A stretch of 64,000 nt of DNA from an uncultured cyanobacterium (GTDB lineage Bacteria > Cyanobacteriota > Cyanobacteriia > Cyanobacteriales > Cyanobacteriaceae). Every line of letters starts with the position of its first letter. Position 1 is the stretch's first letter. Location of the stretch: positions 64,001 through 128,000 of the forward strand of contig CAVVOP010000019.1 in the NCBI GenBank assembly GCA_963749915.1, written 5' to 3'. The notes below the pieces were generated by a model. The model was given only the letters and a program-made list of their open reading frames with translations, searched no databases and was not told the origin of the DNA. This document shows, one piece after another, positions 38,035 through 63,176 of the stretch. A program made the position numbers and the translations under genes.

Positions 38035-38589
38035 CTGACTTTTCACGGTATCTTTTCCCTGAGAAAGGGTTTGGGTGTTAGGGGTTGGGTGATAGGGAAA
38101 ATTCAGTTTTTGTTTTCGAGGGCACGAATCAATGCTGATAATAATCTTCCGAGGGATTCACATCTATTTAAAAGAGAATCAATGACTTTCCCCTCTCCTA
38201 ACTTTACCCTTTTCGACAATAAAAGATGAGTTTCTAATTCTTTAAGAGAGCCTTGTGCTATGTATAAAAACTGTATATATTCTTTTCGGGTTTTTCGACC
38301 ATGCCCCTCAGCGACATTGGCGGGAATAGAGGCTGATGCTCGACGAATCTGAGAAATTAACCCGTAAAGTTCTTCTTTGGGGAAATTGCGAGTAACTAAG
38401 TAGCATTCTTCTGCTAAATCCATGCCTGTTTGCCAAACCTTTAAGTCTCTATAGGATTGTATTCCCATCAGTTTCTAAGTGTTTTTTTTGACTGTTCAAC
38501 TATTAAAGCTTATCCTCAATCCCTAATCCTAACACCCAACCCCTAACACCTAACACCTGTCAACCGAAAAAGATGCCGTGAAAAGTTAG
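38035..38589. mobile_element. 555-bp IR-bounded non-autonomous element carrying a four-helix-bundle gene
   Basis: IRs CTGACTTTTCACGGTATCTTTT / AAAAGATGCCGTGAAAAGTTAG, plus inverted STRR blocks inside both ends. Confidence 0.75.
38103..38468 (-). CDS. Four helix bundle protein (23S rRNA IVP / bAvd-like)
   Basis: YRDLKVWQ, FPKEELYGLISQIRRASASIPANVAEG and AQGSLKELETHL. Confidence 0.93.
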   Translation of the reverse strand: MGIQSYRDLKVWQTGMDLAEECYLVTRNFPKEELYGLISQIRRASASIPANVAEGHGRKTRKEYIQFLYIAQGSLKELETHLLLSKRVKLGEGKVIDSLLNRCESLGRLLSALIRALENKN

Positions 38590-47256: not shown

Positions 47257-48687
47257 TTAGTCTCTCACTCGCAATTTTCCACTCATTAGTTTAGGGAGTA
47301 AGGTATCACGGGTTTTTGTTAGGGTTTGAATTTGTTGATTATTTAGATGATATTTTTTAAATATTGGTAGAATTATTTTTCTAAAAGAGTCAATAATCAA
47401 AGAATTAGGAATGATAATGGGCATCTCCCGTAAAGATCCTAAAGTTATATAAGATTGTGTAGTTCCTGCGAGCCTTGTTCTAAAGTAAGATTTTCCATAA
47501 GTTGAATTTAAAAACAAATATAAAAATTCAGAATATTCTAGATTTTGAGATGTTTTAAACAAGCCAATATTTTTAATGGCAAAATCAATTTCCTCATCTA
47601 AGACAAAATATAAAATTCCAACTGTTCCAATCATCGATAGTAAGATATCATATCTATCCACTTTGCTCCTTTTATTAATATCGATATAATCAGATTCGGA
47701 AATCAAGTAAGCAGAATTAAAATCAATTCCTTCTTTTTTTAGATGTTTTGAGGTTATCAAATAAAAACCTTTTTCTGATTGTTTAGGAGAATCATGTGTT
47801 CCATCCCTAACATCAATAATCTTTTCTAAATTTCCCACTGGCCAACCTGCGGGAATTTCGCCTAGCTCAGACGGGAGCGAAGCGCTGCTGCAAGCAGTTC
47901 GCATTTCACCACCAGAGGATTTATAAGGTTTACCGTCTTCATTAGGAAACTCAAAATCTATAAACCAATGCTTAAATAATGTCTGGGCAATCGCTTCTAA
48001 GCTTTCATTCTGCCTTCTCAAATTGTCAATCTTCGCATCTAAACAAGATAATACATCGGCAATTTTCTTTTGTTCTTCTAAATCAGGTACTTGAAGCTTA
48101 ATCTGACTCAAAATAGATTGATTAATGAGAGGTTGACCTGAACCGCCTCTTAGCCTATCTAATTTATAGTTATTGAGAAAATAGTAAAGAAACACTGAAT
48201 CAGAAATACCTTCTATACTACTTCCAATAATTGCGTTATCAGTAACCCAGCATTCTTCTTTACTCTCTCCAATAAACCAATTCTCAACCTTTAAACCATT
48301 AAAATCTTCAAAATCACTAACATTATTGGTCACCAAAACCAAATCATTACAAAAAGCAATACCCGCAATTTGTCCATCGGCAAAAGCAGGAATTTTTCCC
48401 ATCTTCGATAACCTCGCCCTTTCCTCACCGTGCCACCGTGCCGCTCGTAAATCATAATCAAAAACAGGCATCTTTAAAGGTATCTGCTCAATATAATCCA
48501 GTAAAAATTTTCTTTTTGCCGACTCAGGAGGTAATCGCAAATAACCATAGAATAGTTTATGAATTACTATTGAATCCGTTGCAACTTCCCTCTGATAACG
48601 GTTCATTTTTTCTACCACAAATTGATTGGGTATTTTTTTATTGATTTCAGAAATAACATTGGTGTCTAAGAGATACTTAAAAGTCAA
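47257..48687 (-). CDS. hsdS: In-frame fusion of a VapC/PIN toxin and a 5'-truncated type I specificity subunit HsdS
   Basis: Residues 1-138 are PIN (YLLDTN, FADGQIA, LVTNN..DF, VENW). They are followed by GSGQP, EQKKIA..LDAKI, LFKHWF, GEIPAGW and RDTLLPKLMSG. Confidence 0.88.
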   Translation of the reverse strand: MTFKYLLDTNVISEINKKIPNQFVVEKMNRYQREVATDSIVIHKLFYGYLRLPPESAKRKFLLDYIEQIPLKMPVFDYDLRAARWHGEERARLSKMGKIPAFADGQIAGIAFCNDLVLVTNNVSDFEDFNGLKVENWFIGESKEECWVTDNAIIGSSIEGISDSVFLYYFLNNYKLDRLRGGSGQPLINQSILSQIKLQVPDLEEQKKIADVLSCLDAKIDNLRRQNESLEAIAQTLFKHWFIDFEFPNEDGKPYKSSGGEMRTACSSASLPSELGEIPAGWPVGNLEKIIDVRDGTHDSPKQSEKGFYLITSKHLKKEGIDFNSAYLISESDYIDINKRSKVDRYDILLSMIGTVGILYFVLDEEIDFAIKNIGLFKTSQNLEYSEFLYLFLNSTYGKSYFRTRLAGTTQSYITLGSLREMPIIIPNSLIIDSFRKIILPIFKKYHLNNQQIQTLTKTRDTLLPKLMSGKLRVRD

Positions 48688-49785: not shown

Positions 49786-50099
49786 TATGTCCTCCTTTGT
49801 TTATACTTAATCCATTCTTCAGATGATGGTTCATATAAAGTAATAATAGTTAAAAATTCTCCTTCTTTTCTCGATACCTGCAAATGTAAAACCCGATTAT
49901 TAATTGTTAACCCTAATAGCAAACAACTAGGAGAATATTTATCATCTGGGTAATTTTCAATAATAATCGCATTTTTTCCCGTTTCTTTAATCTCCTCTAA
50001 ACTGATATTCCTCTCTACCAAACGCTGTAAACCATGACGGGTAAATTGAATTTTGCCCTTAGTTAGTTGTTGCCTAATTTGCTTAAGGGATTTCATCAA
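49785..50099 (-). CDS. DUF4258 domain protein
   Basis: TRHG..R..ERNI, IENYPDDKYSPSCLLLG and ITLYEP. Confidence 0.88.
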   Translation of the reverse strand: MMKSLKQIRQQLTKGKIQFTRHGLQRLVERNISLEEIKETGKNAIIIENYPDDKYSPSCLLLGLTINNRVLHLQVSRKEGEFLTIITLYEPSSEEWIKYKQRRT

Positions 50100-50823
50100 A
50101 AATCCCCCAAAGAAAAACCGACTTTCTCTAACTGTATTTTAATCTCTTTATCCAAAGCCAAACCTTCTCGCATTTGTTCTGCTAACTCTTTGGTTAAAAC
50201 TTCCATCGTCTCCTCAAAGGAAATACCATCATCCTCTTCATCAGGAATCCCTACATAACGCCCTGGAGTCAAGACAAAATTATGCTTCTCAATCTCCGCT
50301 AACGTTGCCGACTTACAAAAACCCTTAACATCCTTATAATTCCCCTCGCTCTCTGGGAGAGGGTTTAGGGGTGAGGGCTTCTTCTTCCACTCATGATAAG
50401 TATCGGCAATTTTGGCAATATTCTCATCACTAAAAGCACGATTACGACGATTGACCATATAACCTAACTCCGAAGCATCAATAAATAACACCTCACCCTT
50501 ACGAGATCGACTCTTATTCACGTTTTTATAGCGACTGAGGAACCATAAACAAGCAGGAATACCAGTGTTATAGAATAGCTGTGTCGGTAACATGACAATA
50601 CAATCCACCAAATCAGCTAAATCCTTATGAGCATCATTGAGAAAAGAACCTTCAGGATTCCACTTAATATTCGAGCCATCAATTCCCCTAATCGCCAAAT
50701 TCATCCGACATAACTTATAGGTGGTTTCGTTGCTCTCCTGCCCATAGATAGAAATATCATCCAACCGCCCTTGGTGAGCTTCAATAAACTTCTCACTCTG
50801 AACAAACATTCCCCCCGAACCGC
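50096..50823 (-). pseudogene. hsdM: Type I R-M methyltransferase HsdM, truncated and internally deleted
   Basis: CGSGGMF, YGQESN, LFYNTGIPACLWF and LTPGRYVG are present; the N-terminal half and the NPPF catalytic motif are absent. Confidence 0.88.
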
Positions 50824-51320
50824 AAAGGTTAATCTTACAGTTTCTCAGCCCCAACTGTCGAAAATATTATTTGCTCTGTTAGGTAACCTGCCGAATGTAG
50901 GTTCTAATTGTTTATTTGTGGGCATTTATCTTTTGACATAAAGTTTACTAAGAAGTCATTCAAATCTTCTATGTGGTTGTCAAAATCTATTATCGAGAAT
51001 CACTTTTGACCAAAATATCTGAGCAGGAAAACCAGTTATTAGAGGTTTAAGAATTTCTGTGACGATGATTTTAGAACTTTTAAGCTCAATCTATTTCATC
51101 TTAGAAATTACTCACATTCAATTGGTTAAACTAAGAACCCAATCATTAGGCTATTATTTGTGGGAATTTCTTTTTTACTGGTTAATATTTGCATTTATAT
51201 TTTATGGTCAAAAATATCTAAACCAAGACGAGGTGAACGTTTAGTTTATCATCATTTATTTTCTCTAAAACAAATGCTAGCATTTTTATCGAATGTAGTT
51301 AATCAAATTTATTAGGATTG

Positions 51321-52367
51321 TTATAAATCTATTATTCCATATGTATATAACATAATAACAACCAATCCTATAGAGATAATTAATAATATAACCACGATAA
51401 AATTTAAACAACCTAAATTTCCTTTTATACTTTTAATAACATCTTGTAGCTTCTTAGTTTTTACAGAAAACAGATCATCTATTTGAACTATTTTTTCATC
51501 ATGAATTTTAAGTGATTGACGTATATTAAATATATTCTCAGAATTTAAACTTTCATTATTCTTAATGAGTTCATAAATATCTTTTATGTGTTCACTAATT
51601 TTATTGGTAAAATAGATATTTAGTTTATTTATATCTTGATCAACTTGATATTTGATATCAATTAGTTCACTTGTTATTTCTGATAAATTTTGTTCCAATA
51701 AATTTTGTTTATCTTGGGTTTGTAAATTACTATTATAGTGTTCATTTAAAAGTTTTATTAAATCTTGAATATTTTTGGGTATTTTACCCTCTTTGTTAGT
51801 AAGTTTTTCTAATTCTTCCAATAATTGATTGGCGGGAGAAATCTTACTGCGAATATCACCTTTAGCTTTTAATTGCCAAGATTCTCCACCGGGTAAAATA
51901 TCAACTTTACATGGTTTTTCTATACTGAAATTATTACTAATTGGGCTTACATCTCCTTGAATAATGAATAAAGATTCTATCTGATTTTTTAAACGATTAA
52001 AATTAATTTTACGATCACCATTGAATACTAAATAATAAGATTTACCATTTTCATTTTCTATTAAAATAATCCAATAATAACCACTATTTGTATATTCTAA
52101 ATAAATATTTTCATTATTATCACCCCTATAAGTATCTGCCGTCACGGAAACAGGAGTCCCATATTCCGCTAATATTTGAGGGGCATAATTATAAATATTA
52201 ATTAACTCCTCTTCACTAATATTTATCGGCTTTGGTTGGGGGTTAGATTTTCCACCTGTAACGATAACTCTTTGAGTCGATATTTCTAGTTCTTTTAGTT
52301 TTTTATCTACTTCTTGGAATTTGTTATATATGAGTTCTAGATTTTGACTTGGGGTGTTTTCATTCAT
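51321..52367 (-). CDS. Tubulin-locus accessory protein A: repeated domain, coiled coil, C-terminal TM anchor
   Basis: N-terminal half clearly paralogous to 62106-63176; hydrophobic C-terminal helix. Confidence 0.75.
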   Translation of the reverse strand: MNENTPSQNLELIYNKFQEVDKKLKELEISTQRVIVTGGKSNPQPKPINISEEELINIYNYAPQILAEYGTPVSVTADTYRGDNNENIYLEYTNSGYYWIILIENENGKSYYLVFNGDRKINFNRLKNQIESLFIIQGDVSPISNNFSIEKPCKVDILPGGESWQLKAKGDIRSKISPANQLLEELEKLTNKEGKIPKNIQDLIKLLNEHYNSNLQTQDKQNLLEQNLSEITSELIDIKYQVDQDINKLNIYFTNKISEHIKDIYELIKNNESLNSENIFNIRQSLKIHDEKIVQIDDLFSVKTKKLQDVIKSIKGNLGCLNFIVVILLIISIGLVVIMLYTYGIIDL

Positions 52368-52427
52368 AGTTTTTATATGGAAATAGTCAATAATTAATAA
52401 TGAAAATTATAAAAATTACCAATTAAA

Positions 52428-53891
52428 TTAATTTACTAAATCTATTTCTCCAGATTGAACTAATGCCCATTTGTTTTTAGTATTTTGTTTAACGATGGCA
52501 GGTTTTATTATACTAATTTGATTTCCTTTCAATGTTTGAGATAAATTACCATTACAAATAAATAATTGTGACTTTTTAATTTGTTGTAGAGTTTGAGAAT
52601 TAAATGGAGTATGAGGATCTAAAAATAGATAAAAGTCTCCGTTATTACTATTACTTGCCACAATATAGTATTCTCCTTGACGGTTGTTATTTTCTAATTC
52701 TACTAAACCTTCCCATGTACCCGCTAAAACTTTATTAACAGTATCTTTTGTCATACTTACCCGAATAGCATTTTTTAATAAGCCTTGAGGATTTTCTCTA
52801 TATAAATTTATCAATCTCACATCTTCTGACATTGGGGGAGGCGGCGGTGGTGTTTCTTTATGAATGGTATTAGAATATTGTTGTTGCAAAGATGTGGCAT
52901 CTCTATCACTATCATTCACTGATGGAGGGTTATTTATTTGAAATTCTAATTGTCTGAATTGTTGCTGAACTATAGAGAATTGTGTTTGAGAAAAAGTATT
53001 TAACTCATTAACTTTATCTTGTAAGATTTTTATTTGCTGGTTAAGATATTGATCTTTTCCTTCAAATTCTTCCATGGCATTTTTTTGATGTTTTATTACT
53101 CTAAGTAATTCTCCATTTTTCTTTTTTAGATCCCTAATTAGTAAAGTATTAATAATTGATAATATGGTAACTACTAATCCCAAAACTGAACCAGTTATTA
53201 TAAGTATTAAGACTAGTTTATTCCCTTGATTCTTGTTGTCATTTATATCTACTAAGTTTTCGCTATTAACTGATTTATTTATTGTTTTTATATGGTCTTC
53301 TATTTGTTTGTTTTTTTCGGAGAAAAATGTTGCTAAATTATCATAGGTTTTGTCAGTAAAATTACCGCAATCATTATCATTTTTATTCTGAACAACTCCT
53401 AACGGTATTTGAATATTCTCGCAAATTTCCTTTTCATCTAATTTACCATCCTCGAATAATTTAATAATAGAAGCTATATTTGGGTCTTTTGTTTCTCCTT
53501 CAGTTGCATCGTTGGGTATTTTTATTAACATTAATAAAGATTCAATGTTATTATCATCAACAACTATAGCTTTTAAGCTGTTTGTTGCAGTTGTTAAATT
53601 CTCCAAATCTTTTGGGATTTTCGGGTCAATATTTTCAATAATCTTCGGTTCTGGTGATTTTTCACTTTCTTTTTTTAGTTTTATTAATAATTGTCCATTT
53701 TCTTTGATATTTTCAGCAAAAATTTGATACTTATCTTCAATTTCTTTATTTAATTTTTCAATTTGGTATTTTTTCATTATTTCTTGTTGCGATATATCAT
53801 TCTTCCCAAAAATTGATTCCAAGTTACATCCTGTTAAAAGGAAGGGAAATAAAAAACTTAATAAAATTAATTTAATGGCTTTATTGTTCAT
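52428..53891 (-). CDS. Tubulin-locus accessory protein B: lipoprotein signal, internal TM, coiled coil, poly-Pro, repeated domain
   Basis: LLTGC lipobox; TM LVLILIITGSVLGLVVTILSII; PPPPPP; C-terminal IKPAIV..WAL..G.I. Confidence 0.78.
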   Translation of the reverse strand: MNNKAIKLILLSFLFPFLLTGCNLESIFGKNDISQQEIMKKYQIEKLNKEIEDKYQIFAENIKENGQLLIKLKKESEKSPEPKIIENIDPKIPKDLENLTTATNSLKAIVVDDNNIESLLMLIKIPNDATEGETKDPNIASIIKLFEDGKLDEKEICENIQIPLGVVQNKNDNDCGNFTDKTYDNLATFFSEKNKQIEDHIKTINKSVNSENLVDINDNKNQGNKLVLILIITGSVLGLVVTILSIINTLLIRDLKKKNGELLRVIKHQKNAMEEFEGKDQYLNQQIKILQDKVNELNTFSQTQFSIVQQQFRQLEFQINNPPSVNDSDRDATSLQQQYSNTIHKETPPPPPPMSEDVRLINLYRENPQGLLKNAIRVSMTKDTVNKVLAGTWEGLVELENNNRQGEYYIVASNSNNGDFYLFLDPHTPFNSQTLQQIKKSQLFICNGNLSQTLKGNQISIIKPAIVKQNTKNKWALVQSGEIDLVN

Positions 53892-53907
53892 AATAACCTC
53901 TGAGTAA

Positions 53908-54813
53908 TTAATAATTAAAATTTAAAATACCTTTATCGGATAACCGCCATTGATTTTGATTAACTTCAAAAACTTTGGCCGGCTTAATTACTTGAAAATT
54001 TTTGGATAAATGTTCTTGATAACCTCGTAACTCAAAAATAGTCTTGACCGTTTTAAGATTAGTATTAATTTTTAAATTTAAATCTGGTAACAAATAATAG
54101 CCCCCAGTTTCTAACTTTACAATCCAATAATCACTTTGATTCGAGTCTTGAAAAATTATTTCATTAGCTTTGTTTAGGTAAATATCTTCTAAAGTTTTTT
54201 TAGTGGGGGTAACTTTATAAGCATAATTAGCTAAAAAATTCGGATTATTATAATATTGCTCAATTACATATTGTTCATAATGATCTAGTTCCTGGTAAGG
54301 GGTTATATGTGGAGAATTAGTATTTTCTGAATTAGGGTTATTCTCGGTAAATTTTGTGTCCCCTAAATTGATAGAGTTAAAAGTTTCCATAGATGTTGAT
54401 TGGGTTTGAATTGATAAATCCTTAAGAGATTCTCTGACAATTTTTTTTATTCGACTGTATAAATCTGCTAGAATTTCTTGTTTCAGATTGCTAGATTGAC
54501 TATCCTGATTGGATAAATCATCTACTTGCTTTTCAAGTTCAGAAAGACGAATTTTTAATTCTAATAACTCATTGACCAAATTCTGGGATTCTTCCATTTT
54601 TTTTCTCAACTCATTTCTTTCTTTTCTATAATTATTTGCCCTGTAACAGGCAATTCTTGCCCAATCTTCATTTTTTTTGAGGATTTGTGCCGATGAAATT
54701 TTTTGATTTCCTGAATATAAAGTTAAATCCCAATTACAATATGCACATTCCCCTTGATTTTTTACATATTCAACACCACAAATAGGACATTTTTTTTTGT
54801 TAGCTGAAAACAT
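53908..54813 (-). CDS. Tubulin-locus accessory protein C: Zn ribbon, coiled coil, repeated domain
   Basis: CPIC..CAYC; heptad segment; C-terminal IKPAKV..WRL..KGIL. Confidence 0.78.
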   Translation of the reverse strand: MFSANKKKCPICGVEYVKNQGECAYCNWDLTLYSGNQKISSAQILKKNEDWARIACYRANNYRKERNELRKKMEESQNLVNELLELKIRLSELEKQVDDLSNQDSQSSNLKQEILADLYSRIKKIVRESLKDLSIQTQSTSMETFNSINLGDTKFTENNPNSENTNSPHITPYQELDHYEQYVIEQYYNNPNFLANYAYKVTPTKKTLEDIYLNKANEIIFQDSNQSDYWIVKLETGGYYLLPDLNLKINTNLKTVKTIFELRGYQEHLSKNFQVIKPAKVFEVNQNQWRLSDKGILNFNY

Positions 54814-54916
54814 AATTTCATGGACTAATGTTAATAGTATTTACCCTAAAATGGAGGCTAATTTTGATCCTCCCAACCCCCCCATCACATCAATAAGGGG
54901 GCAATGGATAGGATGA

Positions 54917-57900
54917 TTAATCTTTATAAGAGTCTGCCCATCTTCTGCCTAGAACATGGAGTAAGGATTTTAAACCCATAATAAAGGGGGTTTTTTCCCT
55001 GATATTTTTGGCATCTCCTCTCACATCTAGTAATTCATTTTCCAGGTGATATTTGACCTCTCGCCACAATTCACTGTTTTTATCCTCTTGAGCCGAATCT
55101 TTTTCGTTTTTTTCCGCCGGTTTTTGGGGTTTATAATCTGATTTTGCTAAGGGTTTAATAGTTTCCAAATTTAAAGATTTGATCCCCCCATGAAACTCGT
55201 ATAAAAATCGCTCTAAATGATCGAGGTTAGGAATATCAAACTTGGTAATATTACCCTCTAAATGGAGGCGAGATTGCCAGTTATTTTTCTCCTGAAATTC
55301 CTCATCATCATCATGATATTCGACATAGTAATCCTCTCCGGCGATGGGTTGTTTTTCCTTGTTTTCAGTCATTCCCGTTAATTCCGTTTGACTGAGAACT
55401 AAACCACAGGCTACTTCATGTTTCGGACGAGTGCTAAGGCGTGTTTTTTCGTGAGTATCTTTGAACCCTGAGCCTTTACTTAACATCAGACTAAGTAGTT
55501 TATTAAACTCGGTATTTTGGTCAAATTTACCCGTAGGAGAAAGCCAATGTAAGAAGCGAGACGCATTACCGCCAATATAAACAGGGGTAATCTGATCCTT
55601 ACTATATTTGCCTTGTTTATGAAGTACTTGCAAAATTAGACCAACATAGTAATATAAACCAGCAACTCCGATGGCCGTGAGGGTGACTAAACGCTGAAAA
55701 TACTCATCCTCATTTTTGTAGATCCGTTTTTTATTTAACCATTCCTCTGCCTTATGACGCAAAGCCACATCAATATTGGTCATGATGGAATATTCGCTTA
55801 AACCTGTCCAATCATTGGGGGTAAATTCCTTCATCAACTTTTGGGCGTAACGGGGATTCATGGCGATAATCTCCGAAAAAATATTTCTTCCAGCTAATAA
55901 GACCGAACATTGATAAACGATTTTGCGGTTTTCCCAAATAGATATATCTGAAGTGCCGCCTCCCATGTCAATACAAGTACTGCGAATTAGAGGATGTTTT
56001 TCTTTATCGTTGAAATATTGAGCTAAGGCTACGCTTTCTGTACAAAAACGCTGAGTATCATCAATGGTAGGACAAGAATAGGTTATCCCTGTTTTCGGGC
56101 TTAATTCTTCGGCAATTTCTTCCCAGTTACGATGAAATGTGGTCACGTTGGTATTGGAAAAAGCACTGGGATAAGATATACACCATTCAATAGTATTCAT
56201 CCCGGCATGAACCGCTAAAGCCGAGATTTGTAAGGATAAATGACGGAGAAAAACCTTAGAATATCTAAGATTTGACCATTTCAGATCTAATTTTATCCAT
56301 TGTTTATTGGGATCAAATTCCGTGGGATCGGGGACAAAGATACGACCATCTAAAATGGGTTGTAATTCTCCCTCATCTTCACCGTTTTTCGTGGTAAGTA
56401 CTGTGCACAATGGTAAAGGATCCTCAGACGGCAGAAATTGGGCAGGGATAAAACTTTCAATTAAAGCAGGGAAACGAGTGGCGATAGGACTTTCAGTTAT
56501 ATTCAGTTGTAAATTTTTGTTGATATCCAGGGGAAAATCACCGCTATTGTCACCTTTAACATAAACGTTAGTAAAAGATGTACCAAAGTCAACCCCCACT
56601 CGCCATGTACCTCGTGAGTTAATTTCTGGAGGAGTTGACAGTAAAATTAAGCCAATGTCCCGATAGTAGCTATCTTTACACACCACATGGGTAGGCATTT
56701 CTTGAAGGGTGGAAAGTTGGTATGATCCTGTACCATCAGGGGCTTTGAAACTTCGGGCTTGTTGGTTAGGGAAGTAAACTTTAAAGGTCTCCTCTCCATA
56801 GTCACCATCATAGTAAAAAGTATAGTATTGTTGCCAATTTTTTGCTCGAAAGTTAGGCCAAACCGTTAACACAGGTAAATATTTGATGGCATTTTCTTCC
56901 TGGAGAATATACTCTTTTTGGAGGCGGTAACTTTGGAATTGATTTTGATTAGGGATACCTGATAGGGGAATGGTCAAGGTTATACGAATTCCCTGCCCAT
57001 TAATATTATTAAAAGGCTCTAATTGAATTTTACCGATCAGATCTTCGGGGGTAAAGTACCTTAATAAAATCGGATTGAGGGGGATTAGGGGAGTTACTTT
57101 TTCGCCGTTAAAGGTTATCGGTAGGGTTGTTTTTGGTAGTAAACCTCCGGGTAATGCGTCTTCGAGATCTAAAAATCCTAATTCTTCTAAAAATAATTCT
57201 TCGGAGGTAATCCAATTCACATCATCCCAAACTAATGTGCCATCTCGCAGATCTTTTACGTTTAAGGAGGCTAAAGTGCGATCTTTGTGTACCCAAATAT
57301 TTTGTTTGGGTTGTCCCCAATATTCAGCGATATTCTCATCGATGATAATCAGGGGTTTAGCGTTAGTTTTGATGGCACTGGGAATTACTCTAAGATTAGA
57401 GGGTTTAGGGGGAATTTTGATGGGTTGATTGAGTAAAATTAACGCTCCTCGGTTAATGGATTCACCGAAAAAGTTGGGATTATCACTAAGATTTAAAGGG
57501 GGTATTCCTTGATCATTGATTTGTAAATCCTTACGGAATTGACTGATTAACCCCATCATTTTATTGAGGGCGATCGCAGTGCCATTATAGGCGACGAGAT
57601 TATTTTGGATATTTTCTAACCAACGCCACAATAATTCCTTCGATTCTTGATTCAAATAAGGTTCAGGGCTTACTAACATCCCATCTTGCCACCACCGCAA
57701 CCCGTCCCATTTTCCTTCCTCCGAGGTACAAACAAGGGTACTCGGGCTTGTCATTCCCACTGTTTTACCATTCCACAGGAACACATAAACTTCTTCCCAA
57801 GGGTTTTTATTATCTCTGGTGTAAAGGGCGTTAACAGGTTCAGGCATTAGTTGATAAAGGGCATCTCCAAAGGGTTGGAATCGTTGTTGAGAGAGATCTA

Positions 57901-58207
57901 AAAACTGGACTTTTAAATCGAATCCTTCTACTTCCGCCAAGGCGATCGCGGCCATCATCCCTCGCCATTGTGCCACCATCGCCTTATGAATGGGGTGATT
58001 AGTGTCATAAAGTGCCATTTCCATGATCAGAGGACGTGCCCACATGGTAGGGACGGAACTGACACTTTTAATAACTCCTGGGGCTTGATAATCGAGGCTA
58101 TCGGCTACATCTCGAAAGGCATTATCCCCCCTGCCTTCCCATTGTCCGGGTTGCCCTCTAGTAATGTTGGTATCGTCTTTTAACTTCGATAACAGTAAAT
58201 CTGCCAT
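54917..58207 (-). CDS. Large protein with a C-terminal actin/Hsp70-fold ATPase domain
   Basis: Phosphate-1 VGVDFGTSFT, SYPSAF, connect-1 TESVA, phosphate-2 IDMGGGTSD, adenosine IGGNASR, connect-2 PKHEVACGL; ~530-aa unknown N-terminal half. Confidence 0.85.
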   Translation of the reverse strand: MADLLLSKLKDDTNITRGQPGQWEGRGDNAFRDVADSLDYQAPGVIKSVSSVPTMWARPLIMEMALYDTNHPIHKAMVAQWRGMMAAIALAEVEGFDLKVQFLDLSQQRFQPFGDALYQLMPEPVNALYTRDNKNPWEEVYVFLWNGKTVGMTSPSTLVCTSEEGKWDGLRWWQDGMLVSPEPYLNQESKELLWRWLENIQNNLVAYNGTAIALNKMMGLISQFRKDLQINDQGIPPLNLSDNPNFFGESINRGALILLNQPIKIPPKPSNLRVIPSAIKTNAKPLIIIDENIAEYWGQPKQNIWVHKDRTLASLNVKDLRDGTLVWDDVNWITSEELFLEELGFLDLEDALPGGLLPKTTLPITFNGEKVTPLIPLNPILLRYFTPEDLIGKIQLEPFNNINGQGIRITLTIPLSGIPNQNQFQSYRLQKEYILQEENAIKYLPVLTVWPNFRAKNWQQYYTFYYDGDYGEETFKVYFPNQQARSFKAPDGTGSYQLSTLQEMPTHVVCKDSYYRDIGLILLSTPPEINSRGTWRVGVDFGTSFTNVYVKGDNSGDFPLDINKNLQLNITESPIATRFPALIESFIPAQFLPSEDPLPLCTVLTTKNGEDEGELQPILDGRIFVPDPTEFDPNKQWIKLDLKWSNLRYSKVFLRHLSLQISALAVHAGMNTIEWCISYPSAFSNTNVTTFHRNWEEIAEELSPKTGITYSCPTIDDTQRFCTESVALAQYFNDKEKHPLIRSTCIDMGGGTSDISIWENRKIVYQCSVLLAGRNIFSEIIAMNPRYAQKLMKEFTPNDWTGLSEYSIMTNIDVALRHKAEEWLNKKRIYKNEDEYFQRLVTLTAIGVAGLYYYVGLILQVLHKQGKYSKDQITPVYIGGNASRFLHWLSPTGKFDQNTEFNKLLSLMLSKGSGFKDTHEKTRLSTRPKHEVACGLVLSQTELTGMTENKEKQPIAGEDYYVEYHDDDEEFQEKNNWQSRLHLEGNITKFDIPNLDHLERFLYEFHGGIKSLNLETIKPLAKSDYKPQKPAEKNEKDSAQEDKNSELWREVKYHLENELLDVRGDAKNIREKTPFIMGLKSLLHVLGRRWADSYKD

Positions 58208-58223
58208 TTTTCAAACCTCTTGA

Positions 58224-59723
58224 TTAAACTTTACAACAAACATAAATCGCTTTAGCCAATCCTGGGACTCCCTGATTTGGTTCGCCAAAATTACTGATAT
58301 CTAAATCACCGATGGCATTTTTGAGGGTCACTGCCGTATCTTGATCGACAATTTCCTTGGTACGGGAGTCATCCCATAATAAATCGCCGAACTTTTCACC
58401 TTTTAAACTACGAGGGTTAACAAAATACTCCCTTGCTTTAAATAAGCGTATGCGTTCGTTATCACAATAGTGAATATCCTTTAACCATCGCAAAAAATCC
58501 ACACACCAGTTATCAATACTTTTAATGGCTTCCTGTTGGTCAGAATCACTCAAATCGGGCAAATGTTTACGGGTTTTCATAAACAAGCTAATTCCCTGAA
58601 AGAATTTATCGAACCAAGCTAAACCGTTTAACTCCTTAATTCCTTGAACTTTAGCTGACTGTAACTGAGGTTGAAAATCCGCTAACCAAATAAAGGCAAA
58701 ACGGGCGGCATTGACCAACTTAATTTTTACCTCCTCAACTTGGGGTATATCATCCCATGTTAAAATCCCTGCCTGGGCACGACTCATGACATGGACACCT
58801 TTTTGGGGATGATCACAGAAAAAATGACGGGCGGCCAAACTGGCATAAAATTCCACAAAATGAGGGCGATTCACTTGAGTATCTTTCCCAACGCTAAACT
58901 CTCCCAATTTTTCCATACTCTGATTGCCGATTAAGTATTTGGTGTCAAATTGTTGGGCTTGTTCTCGGTAATACCTTAAGGCTGCCTCAGTATTCAGTAA
59001 AAACAGGTCTGAACTGGCGTAAACTTGCTCATTACCATTACCTTTGGGAAAATTAAAGTAAGGAAGGGCAAAAATACAACCGATTTTCACTCTATCCCTA
59101 ACGCCGTCTTTTTCTAATTTATTGGCAATCAACCGCCCAACAGTTGGCAAACCTGAAGCACCTGTTCCGCCGAAAATTGAGCCACACAGTAAAACTTTAG
59201 CATTACTGCCACTACTCGCATTGTTTTCGATTTCATTGATAAAACTTCGCCAAGGTTCTTCTTCTAGCCGTTCGAGATTTATTTGAGTCATAATACTCGA
59301 TCCAATGGCTGGTCTGCCTCGAAAACCAACTTCTAAAGAGACTTTTCGCTCATTCTCAGTATAGAGAACATCGAATAAATTAGCTAAGGATGGAGAAGTT
59401 TGTTTGAGGGTATCATAGGCAAAAAATGACCCCAGTTTGCGATCGGCATTATTTTTAGTAAAAGGTGACCAAACCCCATAAGATTCAATGTTAGTGGTCA
59501 TCCAAGGGCATTCTTGATGTTTTCCCTGCAATAACTGATAACATTTTTGATAGAGACTGAGGCTCGTTTGTGATCGCTGTAAATTACCGTTAGTTTCATC
59601 GGCATCAATAAATAAAATTCTTAACTTATTGGTAGGAATTAAACCCACGGAGGTCAATTGAATAATTGCCTCAACACATTTAGCACCTGTACCACCAATA
59701 CCCACAACATAAAAACTCATCAT
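58224..59723 (-). CDS. Divergent tubulin/FtsZ-superfamily GTPase
   Basis: VGIGGTGAK (T1), IDAD, GFRGRPAIG (T3-like), SIFGGTGASG (T4 signature) and LPYF. Confidence 0.88.
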   Translation of the reverse strand: MMSFYVVGIGGTGAKCVEAIIQLTSVGLIPTNKLRILFIDADETNGNLQRSQTSLSLYQKCYQLLQGKHQECPWMTTNIESYGVWSPFTKNNADRKLGSFFAYDTLKQTSPSLANLFDVLYTENERKVSLEVGFRGRPAIGSSIMTQINLERLEEEPWRSFINEIENNASSGSNAKVLLCGSIFGGTGASGLPTVGRLIANKLEKDGVRDRVKIGCIFALPYFNFPKGNGNEQVYASSDLFLLNTEAALRYYREQAQQFDTKYLIGNQSMEKLGEFSVGKDTQVNRPHFVEFYASLAARHFFCDHPQKGVHVMSRAQAGILTWDDIPQVEEVKIKLVNAARFAFIWLADFQPQLQSAKVQGIKELNGLAWFDKFFQGISLFMKTRKHLPDLSDSDQQEAIKSIDNWCVDFLRWLKDIHYCDNERIRLFKAREYFVNPRSLKGEKFGDLLWDDSRTKEIVDQDTAVTLKNAIGDLDISNFGEPNQGVPGLAKAIYVCCKV

Positions 59724-59846
59724 TTTTCCCCTATTTTATTTAGACATCTCCAAAAAATTCAACTCGAAATCAATTGTAGGATTGGGAATCATTAATTTTA
59801 TCCACTATTACCTATCTATTCCCCGACTTCTGAAAAAAGTCCATGG

Positions 59847-60335
59847 TTAATTTCTATTCATGAGGCCATTAACCATTATCGCCCCAGGTACGGTTTTCTT
59901 TTTCAATAGTCCTGGGGTACTGGTAACGGTGGGTAGCCAATAAAGTAAAAATAAAGAGTTGAACAAGAATAACCCCATCATGGAAATTAAAGTTTCTTGA
60001 ATTAACTCCCCATTCTGATCTTGATTATTAAAGTAAACCGTTGCACTGACGATGATTACCAGTAGTAATAAACCTATATACCAGAGTAGCTTAAAGGAAC
60101 TGGCATTACCATGTTGATTTTTTAGGAGTACAACATACCATAAAATAGTAAAGCTAAGGGAAAAAGCAAAAATAATCCAAGCCGCTAAGGTATATTGTTT
60201 AACCCAATCACTGAAAGGAATACTCCTAATTACCCCGAAAAATTTTTGCTCATAAAGTAACGGTTGTAACCACATCATAAGTATAAAACCCACTAAGGCA
60301 AAGATGATGATTCTAATAATTTCGCCGACTTTCAT
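59847..60335 (-). CDS. Four-TM membrane protein, first gene of the tubulin operon
   Basis: Four hydrophobic segments; co-oriented upstream of the tubulin-like gene. Confidence 0.72.
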   Translation of the reverse strand: MKVGEIIRIIIFALVGFILMMWLQPLLYEQKFFGVIRSIPFSDWVKQYTLAAWIIFAFSLSFTILWYVVLLKNQHGNASSFKLLWYIGLLLLVIIVSATVYFNNQDQNGELIQETLISMMGLFLFNSLFLLYWLPTVTSTPGLLKKKTVPGAIMVNGLMNRN

Positions 60336-60504
60336 TATTTTTAATGTCGATAATTAGGTTTAGTTTTGATACTAAAGTTGTTATACTGTAAAATATATAA
60401 AACTTCAATATCTATCTCAAATAAGAAACGCTATTTAATACTTATTCGACAACTTACGATATATTTACATTGTAAACGAACATATAGAAAACGATAGTTA
60501 ATTC

Positions 60505-62064
60505 ATGGGTAACGTTGGTAAAAATACCTTTAAATCCTTACTTTTTATTATTTTGTCCATATCTCTGTTGTCGAGTTGCCAAAAAACTCCCGAGGAAGAG
60601 TTAGCCTGTAATACAGATTCGAGACCAGCAAAAGTTAATATAGAAAATACCGATAGTAAATTAGATATATCCGTCAATGTGGATGGTAGTGATTCGATGG
60701 TGGGTTATGTAACTATTCCTAACAATAACTATAGTAAAGTCTTAGAATTAATAGCCAATGCCGTTATCAGTACCAATACGGTGAATGTAGAGTATAAGCG
60801 CATTGGAGATGATAAAACCCTCACCCGTAACGATTTCCGCAAAGACGCCACCTCTAAGGTTTTTTATGGTGGCAATGATAGCATTTATAAACCTGTTTCT
60901 AGTCCTATTCACTCTGCCATTACTCCCCCAGTGGCGGGAAAATATAAGTTAACGATTATTGTCACGGATTTAGAGGGAGATGATGGAGGAAAAATTGCCG
61001 AAATTTTAGCACAAAATTACTTAAATAATGATGAAAAAAATCGAGATTATACTGTCGGTATTTGGGGGGTAAAAAGTCAGTTTAACGGTACTATTTATGA
61101 TCCCAATACTGGCAGGGCTAAATTTAATTATAGTACCCAGGGAAAAAAAGCCGATGGTTTTCGTCCTTTCTATGTTTTATTTGTGGGTAAATATGATCAC
61201 ATCGCTAAATATTTTGATGAGTTTAAAAAACTAGATACTCAAATTCAAAATGATAGTCATATGTTTATTTTTCCTACTCAAAAAATGGTAGAAAATCCCA
61301 TTAATTTAGGTACTCTTGACGAGAGAAAAAATAATAGTAAATTACCACAAAATCAGCAATTAGAAAGAGTTTTTGCTCTACAGGATAATCATGTTATTGT
61401 TGACGTAAAAAATCCTCACAATCAACCTTACGAATTATTAAGTATAGTTAATGATAGCGATCCAAAACCGACTATTCATTATCAAGTTTCTTTTCCCCAA
61501 ATTAATAATATTAAAGAGGATAGTTATTCGTTATACATTGACGAAAACAACTTAAAAACTAAAACCAAAGTATTTACTTTTAACTCTAATAATCAAGTTA
61601 ATAAAGTAACGGAATCTACTCCCGAAGAATCAGAATCGGATACTGAGGAAAAAAATACTAAGAAAAAAGATCAACCTAAAAAAGTTGATAATGAATTAAA
61701 TAATGCCTATGAAAAAAAGTTCTTTAAACTCAATTCTAGTAATTCTTTACAACAGGGATTAGTAGTTAAAGATTTAAAGTTGGATAAGGAAAAAGAAACC
61801 TTACAATTTATCACCGATATTAATTTAAATAGTTTGCCAAATTCGGAAATTTATTTATTTGAAGTTGATTTAATTTTAACAGATTTAACAGGGTTAGACT
61901 GGTGGAATAGTTGGAGTACTAATAGTCAAAGTAATGATGGCTCAAAAACACAAAATTTGTCTATTTTTATGAATAAATTAAAGAGTTTAACATTGCAAAA
62001 TTTCAGCAATCAGGATGGGGATCCAGTCATTGGTACTTTTTGTTTTGCCCTTCAAAAAAATTAA
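60505..62064 (+). CDS. Lipoprotein with a vWA/MIDAS-like domain
   Basis: LSSC lipobox; VDGSDSMVGY (DxSxS); IIVTDLE; RPFYVLFVG. Confidence 0.72.
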   Translation: MGNVGKNTFKSLLFIILSISLLSSCQKTPEEELACNTDSRPAKVNIENTDSKLDISVNVDGSDSMVGYVTIPNNNYSKVLELIANAVISTNTVNVEYKRIGDDKTLTRNDFRKDATSKVFYGGNDSIYKPVSSPIHSAITPPVAGKYKLTIIVTDLEGDDGGKIAEILAQNYLNNDEKNRDYTVGIWGVKSQFNGTIYDPNTGRAKFNYSTQGKKADGFRPFYVLFVGKYDHIAKYFDEFKKLDTQIQNDSHMFIFPTQKMVENPINLGTLDERKNNSKLPQNQQLERVFALQDNHVIVDVKNPHNQPYELLSIVNDSDPKPTIHYQVSFPQINNIKEDSYSLYIDENNLKTKTKVFTFNSNNQVNKVTESTPEESESDTEEKNTKKKDQPKKVDNELNNAYEKKFFKLNSSNSLQQGLVVKDLKLDKEKETLQFITDINLNSLPNSEIYLFEVDLILTDLTGLDWWNSWSTNSQSNDGSKTQNLSIFMNKLKSLTLQNFSNQDGDPVIGTFCFALQKN

Positions 62065-62105
62065 ATAGATTTATGTAAATTTTATCGACGAAAAATTTAT
62101 AATCT

Positions 62106-63176
62106 ATGACTAATAATTATGATTTAGAAAAAATCTTCAGTTATGTACAAAAATTAGAGAAAAGAATTACTAAATTAGAATCAGAAAAAGCAATAATTGT
62201 TCATGGTCATTTAGCAAGTCAATCAGCAAAATCCCTGACAATTTCTTTGAATCAATTAATTAATGTTTATAACGATGTTTCTCATATTTTAGATGTTTAT
62301 GCTGTAACAGTTTCTTTATCCGCCGATAGTTATCGTCAACAAGTAAAAGATCAAGTTATATTAAATCAAGTAACAAGAGGAAATTATTGGGTTATTTTAT
62401 TGGAAAATGAAGAAGGAAAAAACTATTATTTATTACCCAATGCTAATATTAAACTCAGAATATACAGATTAAAAACTATCAGTAATTTATTTGCAATCAA
62501 AGGTGAAAATGATGGAAAACAAGAAGAATTTACTTTAATTAAACCTGCTAAATTAGAAATTTTATCCAGTGGTAATGAGTGGAGAATCAAGGAAAAAGGA
62601 GAGTTATTTTTAGGTAAGAAAAGCTCTACCCAAAGGTTAGTATCAGAGTTAGAAAAATTTACCGCACATGAAGACAAAATTCCCGCTAGTTTACAACAAT
62701 TGTTAAAAATTTTAACCAAAATAAATCAAGGTAATTCTCAGTTAGCCAAAGAGATTGAATTATTAGATAGTAGATTACAAAAATTAGAGCCTCAATACGT
62801 TAGGTTAATTAATTTATATTATAAGAATCCCCAAAAATTTGCTCAGTTAGAAGGAGGTAGTCAACGATTAAAAGTAACAAAACAGACGATTAAAGATTTT
62901 ATTCAAAATACCATGAATTCCGTTTATTTAGAAGTTAATGAAGCTGGAGAATATTTACTTAAAAAAGGAGAAAAAGATGAATATTTATTTCCAGATCCTC
63001 TCTTAATTTTTGATAAAATGACTTTATTATTTGCCCGTCAAGGAAAATTATTTATCATTGAAAATGAAATACCGATCGCGATTTTGGGCAAGGATATGAA
63101 AATCAAAAAACCTGCTAAGGTAAGAAAAAATGGTGATGTTTGGTTATTAATTGAATCGGGAGAAATAAGTTTATAA
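62106..63176 (+). CDS. Tubulin-locus accessory protein D: two copies of the repeated domain joined by a coiled coil
   Basis: Two IKPAK(L/V)..W..I..GE motifs; N half resembles protein A and C half resembles protein B. Confidence 0.78.
   Translation: MTNNYDLEKIFSYVQKLEKRITKLESEKAIIVHGHLASQSAKSLTISLNQLINVYNDVSHILDVYAVTVSLSADSYRQQVKDQVILNQVTRGNYWVILLENEEGKNYYLLPNANIKLRIYRLKTISNLFAIKGENDGKQEEFTLIKPAKLEILSSGNEWRIKEKGELFLGKKSSTQRLVSELEKFTAHEDKIPASLQQLLKILTKINQGNSQLAKEIELLDSRLQKLEPQYVRLINLYYKNPQKFAQLEGGSQRLKVTKQTIKDFIQNTMNSVYLEVNEAGEYLLKKGEKDEYLFPDPLLIFDKMTLLFARQGKLFIIENEIPIAILGKDMKIKKPAKVRKNGDVWLLIESGEISL

Follow-up and report, generated by a model that had tools for sequence, protein, structure and literature searches.

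The window analysed here is a stretch of 64,000 nucleotides from an uncultured cyanobacterium (contig CAVVOP010000019.1), in which positions 51321-63176 carry a cluster of eight genes. They encode a tubulin-like GTPase of the Tubulin_2 type (TUB), an ATPase of the actin/Hsp70 fold (ACT), a small protein with four transmembrane (TM) segments, a lipoprotein with vWA-like motifs, and four further proteins, termed adaptors A to D (Table 1). All eight open reading frames (ORFs) are open, stop-free and intact, and the gaps along the locus are 60, 16, 103, 16, 123, 169 (divergent) and 41 bp, which agrees with the intact, tightly spaced locus described in an earlier note made from the DNA letters alone (the sequence-only reading). 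Every gene of the module is single-copy in the host genome, and the closest named relatives of its proteins belong to Cyanobacterium and Geminocystis. The divergent region contains overlapping sigma70-like sites at 60366-60394 (+) and 60420-60392 (-), a weak signal given 64 such sites versus 54.7 +/- 8.1 in shuffles, and no CRP site above chance was found there.

Table 1. Genes of the module in the window, and second ACT copies at related loci (numbers with L, P and G are our designations for loci, proteins and genomes).
Feature	Position	Strand	Length	Remark
Adaptor A	51321..52367	-	348 aa	
Adaptor B	52428..53891	-	487 aa	
Adaptor C	53908..54813	-	301 aa	
ACT, actin/Hsp70-fold ATPase	54917..58207	-	1096 aa	orthologue of Sll0446
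TUB, Tubulin_2-type GTPase	58224..59723	-	499 aa	
4-TM membrane protein	59847..60335	-	162 aa	orthologue of Sll0444
Divergent intergenic region	60336..60504	.	169 bp	
Lipoprotein, vWA-like by motif	60505..62064	+	519 aa	orthologue of Sll0443
Adaptor D	62106..63176	+	356 aa	
Second ACT copy	L003:17461-19686			destroyed ATP-binding motifs
Second ACT copy	L035:449-3379			destroyed ATP-binding motifs; fused to N-terminal part of A-like adaptor
Second ACT copy	L040:17543-19741			destroyed ATP-binding motifs
Second ACT copy	L050:10975-12747			destroyed ATP-binding motifs
Second ACT copy	L107:930-3182			destroyed ATP-binding motifs

TUB was matched by Pfam Tubulin_2 (E = 1.7e-7) with 31.2 bits, above the curated cut-off of 27, and it kept the T1 (GIGGTG), T3 (GFRGRP), T4 (FGGTGASG) and T5 (PYF) motifs relative to the host's own FtsZ, which is encoded on another contig. 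The C-terminal half (~190 aa) could not be aligned to FtsZ and the T7 loop could not be placed in it, and searching the TUB profile against PDB sequences returned nothing below E 0.3. TUB is 36% identical over its full length to Sll0445 of Synechocystis, and 128 aligned homologues are ~460-570 aa long. ACT was modelled with AlphaFold2 at a mean predicted local distance difference test (pLDDT) score of 87, with 98 homologues in the alignment, and residues 532-947 of the model match MreB, FtsA and Hsp70 in Foldseek (best E 1.4e-7), the comparison with MreB giving a VIA Z of 16.5 and a root-mean-square deviation of 3.6 over 281 aligned residues. These structural matches share 11-18% identity. Both folds named in the sequence-only reading are therefore upheld, as is its statement that the locus is not ftsZ/ftsA, mreB or tubZRC, given the separate FtsZ of the host. 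ACT stays below the family profile cut-offs (17.9 bits versus 27 for MreB, 17.6 versus 31.8 for FtsA), and with no family profile above its cut-off it was rejected as MreB, FtsA, ParM or DnaK proper. Its N-terminal ~480 residues were modelled confidently without an assigned fold, in a search made only within the whole-protein model.

The model of ACT indicates an intact actin-fold ATPase site, comprising phosphate-1 (D540-FGT), the connect-1 Glu (E724), phosphate-2 (D747-MGGGT) and the adenosine motif (G879-GN). Among 85 full-length ACT homologues, the phosphate-1 Asp was present in 83, the catalytic Glu in 84 and the phosphate-2 Asp in all. A second, truncated ACT copy occurs in five loci (Table 1), mostly beginning near residue 333, with the phosphate motifs destroyed in all five and the catalytic Glu absent in four. 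Genome G160 has a further second copy, located on another contig. Complex prediction for ACT 333-1096 with the domain shared by the adaptors gave no answer (score 0.00) and was not used as evidence.

The lipoprotein has a lipobox Cys25 and residues resembling a metal-ion-dependent adhesion site (MIDAS), D60-G-S-x-S64 and T154-D155; C25, D60, S64, T154 and D155 are each at least 90% conserved in 30 aligned rows, and in a wider set the MIDAS-like motif was found in 77 and a lipobox-like sequence in 69 of 90 proteins. It had no Pfam match and its profile found nothing below E 0.3 among PDB sequences, so the vWA-like label is a call at the level of motifs. The 162-aa protein has four hydrophobic segments, and its gene nearly always adjoins that of TUB.

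The adaptors A, B, C and D carry the same ~120-residue domain in five copies in total (BLAST E down to 5e-40, and profile), spread over both strands of the locus, which agrees with the claim of the sequence-only reading that shared domains tie both arms together. A profile search found no copy elsewhere in the host genome. Adaptor A has the shared domain (51-174), a predicted coiled-coil region and a C-terminal TM segment (323-341); this form was seen only in the window's locus. Adaptor B starts with a lipobox-like LTGC (Cys22), followed by a predicted periplasmic part (23-225), a TM segment (226-244), a coiled-coil region and the shared domain (356-485), while adaptor C is soluble, with an N-terminal CxxC-x10-CxxC zinc ribbon (weak profile matches), a coiled-coil region and the shared domain (179-299). 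Adaptor D is soluble and has two copies (47-169 and 230-356), the first of which folds confidently (pLDDT 89). Compared with four close orthologues, adaptor B shows 33-40% identity in its periplasmic part, 26-30% in the coiled coil and 66-72% in the shared domain, and adaptor C shows 73-74% in the shared domain versus 37-46% in its middle part; unlike B and C, adaptor D has no such contrast to its close orthologues. A docking role would fit the shared domain, because it is constrained while the stalks and outer parts of B and C drift. The domain was found in 133 proteins, with a TM segment preceding it in 66, a TM segment following it in 4, and a soluble protein in the other 63; a cytoplasmic location of the domain would fit this pattern. 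Its model found nothing at E<=0.001 in the PDB (best Z 3.0 among 48,161 chains) or in BFVD, which does not prove a new fold; its profile found nothing below E 0.3 among PDB sequences. Homology of this domain to GrpE was not significant by structure (VIA Z 2.4 and 2.0), HHalign (probability 1.4% and 3.2%) and column shuffles (1/60 as high), only a short P-A-x-V motif being common to both.

The survey set comprised 401 genomes of the phylum, 38 genomic loci, and 90 loci from metagenomes and viruses; a scan with a single protein as query had yielded 3 loci only. A search of the ESM Atlas returned unnamed clusters only. TUB was found in 33 of the 401 genomes and ACT in 36, including all 33 with TUB, the three extra ACT matches being weak or fragmentary; the neighbourhood survey thus bears out the co-occurrence expected in the sequence-only reading. 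Genome G230, from the same genus as the host, encodes neither. Of the 38 genomic loci, 36 had the TM gene, 33 had ACT, 30 encoded the lipoprotein and 29 had one adaptor or more; contig ends account for several of the misses, and split or orphan loci for a few. The number of adaptor genes within 20-kb stretches was 0-4, which is a lower bound. The metagenome and viral loci span GC contents of 0.30-0.73, and TUB was called in 86 of them, the ORF caller having missed it in four loci of high GC that were dropped from downstream counts. Among the informative loci, ACT followed TUB in 56 of 60, and 52 of 58 encoded the lipoprotein. The genes of a Prevotella record are arranged likewise, with McrBC one gene away. 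Three proteins are natural TUB-ACT fusions (P0283, P0323 and P0364). Co-occurrence and fusions make TUB and ACT obligate partners, and the counts, order and fusions across loci define the conserved unit as the lipoprotein, the 4-TM protein, TUB and ACT with a variable number of adaptors. What the sequence-only reading took for a unit of eight genes is one conserved module whose parts travel together across genomes, as its claim of a single trans-envelope module requires; the number eight is not fixed, for adaptors vary and the divergent layout with adaptor D is specific to the close relatives of this lineage. The parts very probably form one machine. Except for FtsZ-FtsA, we know of no characterised prokaryotic machine with an obligate, sometimes fused pair of tubulin-fold and actin-fold proteins. 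The module was also found on five cyanobacterial plasmids and on ten IMG/VR contigs, one of which was checked and has an integrase upstream, and broken copies exist (L042 and L046).

A locus identical in its proteins (L058) to Sll0443, 0444, 0445, 0446, 0447 and 0449 of Synechocystis sp. PCC 6803 (NCBI names) makes sll0443-sll0449 the orthologous operon by sequence, with a lipoprotein, a 4-TM protein, a Tubulin_2 protein, a 1072-aa ATPase and adaptors. It is led by the lipoprotein gene, whereas in the window this gene is divergent and followed by adaptor D. The papers cited here and below were covered in part, and statements drawn from them refer to the parts covered. Xu et al. 2021 (PMC9880817) assigned Tubulin_2, FtsA and DivIC domains to sll0445-0447, and reported that Sll0445 and Sll0446 co-elute (score 0.593). 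The sequence-only reading knew of no function for such genes, which holds only in part: the orthologues sll0445-0447 had already been annotated and knocked out, with phenotypes.

Beyond the conserved unit, and outside the window's clade, ZorA-like and ZorB-like motor genes were found at 16 of the 61 related loci for which 5 kb or more of downstream sequence was available (PADLOC, best match per protein: E 2e-14 to 4e-5 for ZorA-like and 2e-21 to 2e-5 for ZorB-like proteins). Sixteen of 17 ZorA-like genes are co-oriented and lie 0-3 genes after ACT, mostly with gaps of <200 bp, and all 14 ZorB-like proteins that were aligned have the plug Asp. On a TUB tree built by a quick method from 86 loci with near-full TUB and ACT, the motor label is scattered, with 10 changes, at least 7 of which are forced. 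In L187 (17543-18952) and L188, two tandem ZorB-like genes follow one ZorA-like gene, then a trypsin-like protease, and L187 has an integrase upstream. No match to the ZorC/D, ZorE or ZorF/G effectors was found among the eight window proteins or 90 selected neighbours.

An iSTAND-MoxR-vWA trio stands between TUB and ACT in L047 (10810-18966), and in P0232 ACT is fused to trypsin and VMAP-M1, with the catalytic Glu replaced by Lys. A ~235-aa N-terminal domain precedes TUB in P0241, P0249 and P0355 and ACT in the L047 ATPase; it had no Pfam match and no further copy in the collected sequences, and its position leads us to guess that it may be the tail of the iSTAND vWA protein. Uma2, nucleotidyltransferase (MNT)/HEPN and HNH genes have been inserted repeatedly between TUB and ACT (L053, L054, L056, L057, L119 and L120). 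Downstream of the ACT slot in L141, L175 and L180, where adaptors are usual, we observed a bona fide Hsp70 paralogue together with a large TM protein, the one of L141 bearing TPR repeats.

Several known systems resemble the module in part. The FtsZl1 and FtsZl2 families, with which the sequence-only reading had associated the locus, share with TUB the divergent Tubulin_2 type, a T7 that is not identifiable, membrane neighbours and, in some lineages, OmpA-domain neighbours; they also have vWA neighbours, to which the lipoprotein, vWA-like by motif, may correspond. FtsZl1 proteins are of ~1000 aa, with an extended coiled coil, a helical C-domain and vWA plus P-loop GTPase and/or protein kinase partners, and FtsZl2 is proteobacterial and solitary (Makarova and Koonin 2010, PMC2875224). 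TUB, in contrast, is of 499 aa with an actin-fold ATPase as partner, occurs in cyanobacteria and multiple phyla and sits in a strict operon, and no divergent P-loop GTPase or protein kinase was found in the core or in recurrent neighbour clusters. Sll0445 is not among the 22 cyanobacterial FtsZl entries, of which one from PCC 7822 is unchecked (PMC2875224). Identity with FtsZl1 or FtsZl2 was rejected because size, partners and taxonomy differ and Sll0445 is unlisted, and the association made by the sequence-only reading is not supported. The DO-GTPase/GAP1 and MoxR-vWA ternary systems of Kaur et al. 2020 (PMC7159879) have in common with the module an NTPase core with variable partners and the pairing, close to the membrane, of tubulin or Hsp70 with vWA. 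Their inactive enzyme domains resemble the dead ATPase paralogues, and their iSTAND/VMAP parts join some module loci. The module core differs in being without DO-GTPase, GAP1 or MoxR (no Pfam match to DO-GTPase/GAP1 among the eight proteins or the scanned neighbours), and those systems are nearly absent from cyanobacteria, with non-overlapping tubulin and Hsp70 themes (PMC7159879).

The motor-bearing relatives of the module resemble Zorya I-III in encoding a long ZorA-like protein with three TM segments, together with a ZorB-like protein that has the plug Asp and, in most cases, an OmpA domain; the partners are instead TUB, ACT and adaptors, and 90 scanned neighbours gave no ZorC/D/E/F/G match. 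Identity with Zorya I-III was rejected, as the window's locus is motor-less and no effectors were found. The Zorya motor detects a perturbed envelope, upon which it recruits effectors from the cytoplasm (PMC11946911, PMC11890865). In PMC9871819, Tubulin_2 proteins served only as an outgroup. No description of the whole system was found in the literature covered, subscription journals and the source data of Kaur et al. being largely outside this scope; already in print is one member, as three hypothetical proteins of a single strain with a gene pair noted, without the five-part system, shared domain or motor (PMC9880817).

The module could be an envelope-surveillance or conflict machine whose tubulin and actin partners would assemble at the membrane under nucleotide control, a tentative reading that we prefer to the others but consider possible rather than probable, and that is suggested by carriage on plasmids and viral contigs, broken copies, dead paralogues, the motor and the joining of iSTAND/VMAP parts. 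Among the options offered by the sequence-only reading, conflict or defence is favoured because of the recurrent ZorAB-like motor and the dead ATPase paralogues. The lipoprotein, with its MIDAS-like residues, and the outer portions of B-type adaptors would lie in the periplasm and bind a cell-wall or foreign ligand, the 4-TM protein would anchor TUB and ACT, as a complex, on the cytoplasmic side of the plasma membrane, and the cytoplasmic shared domain would dock the adaptors on the NTPase pair; both this binding and the polymerisation of TUB and ACT are proposals, as are the two NTPase polymers of the sequence-only reading. Upon envelope disturbance, such as phage injection or cell contact, GTP and ATP cycles could gate the local assembly of a membrane scaffold, which the ion motor, where present, might trigger or power. 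Since the core has no nuclease, the output may be mechanical, namely to seal, pinch off or arrest. In the window's lineage, the motor is absent and the adaptors are expanded. We regard as unlikely a bolder version, by which the module would be an ancient apparatus for immunity or envelope repair, spread over many phyla: on detecting a breach, a Zorya-type ion motor would drive a heteropolymer of tubulin and actin, docked through an adaptor domain of new fold, to close or pinch off the damaged patch of membrane without any nuclease. The window would then hold a motor-less cyanobacterial derivative whose adaptors have expanded, and the dead ATPase paralogues would serve as decoys or brakes.

A number of observations weigh against surveillance or conflict. 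None of the loci in the window's clade (31 tree rows) contains a motor, no ZorAB-like motor was found in the host genome, and several motor-bearing loci are near-copies (L187-189, L191-192). MotB/ZorB-like genes occur in 259 of the 401 genomes regardless, in an unspecific search, and because they are so common the motor link may reflect co-location in islands. None of the PADLOC models matched the eight window proteins below E 1e-4, the core is without a nuclease or any other effector, housekeeping genes surround many of the loci, and no TUB match was found in 50,697 phage records. The experimental evidence from Synechocystis, too, points to motility and photosystem II (PSII) rather than defence: insertion mutants of sll0445, sll0446 and sll0447 were impaired in phototaxis and altered in OJIP (PSII) fluorescence (PMC9880817), and the operon has a CRP site (PMC2633013) and is grouped with a minor-pilin regulon, slr2015-2018 (PMC9880817/PMC2633013).

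These data, the only wet-laboratory evidence, are the strength of an explanation as a surface motility, adhesion or aggregation machine, in which the lipoprotein would be adhesin-like, TUB and ACT would place or reshape pili or focal contacts, and a MotAB-type motor, where present, would give force; MotAB-type motors drive gliding as well (PMC11890865), operon transcripts are up ~4-6 fold in a lexA mutant (PMC4759255), and Sll0445/6 are deregulated in a comFB pilus mutant (bioRxiv 2023.11.27.568819). However, the covered text of PMC9880817 makes no mention of complementation and the insertions could be polar, its Sll0445-GFP pull-down (Table S6) is without Sll0446 and Sll0447, and Slr2018, a pilus protein, is listed there for the unrelated bait Slr0149-GFP as well, so the pilus link is weak. 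Across the survey, the CRP site was above shuffles in only 1 of 35 loci tested, and a conserved site was rejected. TUB was not found in 368 of the 401 genomes, including most of those from families with gliding members, and neither dead paralogues nor mobile carriage is expected of a motility core. We therefore regard motility as somewhat unlikely; the distribution of the module suggests that the Synechocystis phenotype is maybe not its primary role, and under surveillance or conflict this defect would arise secondarily, from an effect on the cell surface.

Tubulin and actin NTPase folds shape membranes elsewhere, and they are both known from partition systems. The former, together with Hsp70, trypsin and dynamin-like neighbours in some loci and the altered PSII fluorescence of the mutants, would agree with housekeeping membrane remodelling or export, such as vesicle release, secretion or thylakoid-plasma membrane contact, a kind of role put forward for FtsZl1 operons and by Xu et al. 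This is quite unlikely, as the module occurs in non-photosynthetic bacteria, is patchy and often decayed, and has no conserved outer-membrane channel or cargo gene among its clustered neighbours, and the photosystem "partners" are abundant proteins that were also seen in control pull-downs (PMC9880817). Segregation of plasmid or prophage DNA by a TubZ-like and ParM-like pair would account for the copies on plasmids and viral contigs, but the core is without a DNA-binding adaptor and conserves a periplasmic lipoprotein and TM proteins instead, a Gloeothece plasmid with the module has its own ParA/ParB, and several copies lie on multi-megabase contigs, making this role highly improbable.

The present analysis newly connects the module with the Synechocystis operon and its mutants, describes dead paralogues of the ATPase and gives counts for the motor link. 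What sets the module apart is that its tubulin-actin pair goes together with a probably periplasmic lipoprotein, with adaptors whose fold is unassigned and, in many lineages, with a Zorya-type motor unaccompanied by Zorya effectors. An envelope-surveillance or conflict machine of this kind would widen the range of outputs of ZorAB-type motors and of roles for Tubulin_2, a question standing since 2010, and it is directly testable because Synechocystis PCC 6803 expresses the orthologous operon and mutants exist.

In the window, the module adjoins an insertion sequence (IS) and a decayed island of type I restriction and toxin-antitoxin genes: the left flank has an HsdM fragment, a PIN/HsdS frame, toxin-antitoxin-like DUFs and IS fragments, and the right flank a transposase. 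The decayed restriction-modification remnants at 47257-48687 (-) and 50096-50854 (-) include, besides the HsdM fragment, a PIN-like domain in the same frame as HsdS specificity domains, and stand among DUF4258, DUF6883/DUF4926 and small antitoxin-like ORFs. Proteins of the 23S rRNA-intervening-sequence type can accompany diversity-generating retroelements, and one such four-helix-bundle protein is encoded at 38103-38468 (-) beside transposase fragments. A Picosynechococcus plasmid (L102:2677-9420) has an operon for an alternate F1F0 ATPase and genes for phosphonate transport in the vicinity of the module. Besides the canonical grpE, extra divergent GrpE-like genes are present in the host genome (G000:C8:897292-897534), with similar matches in Nostocaceae-type genomes.

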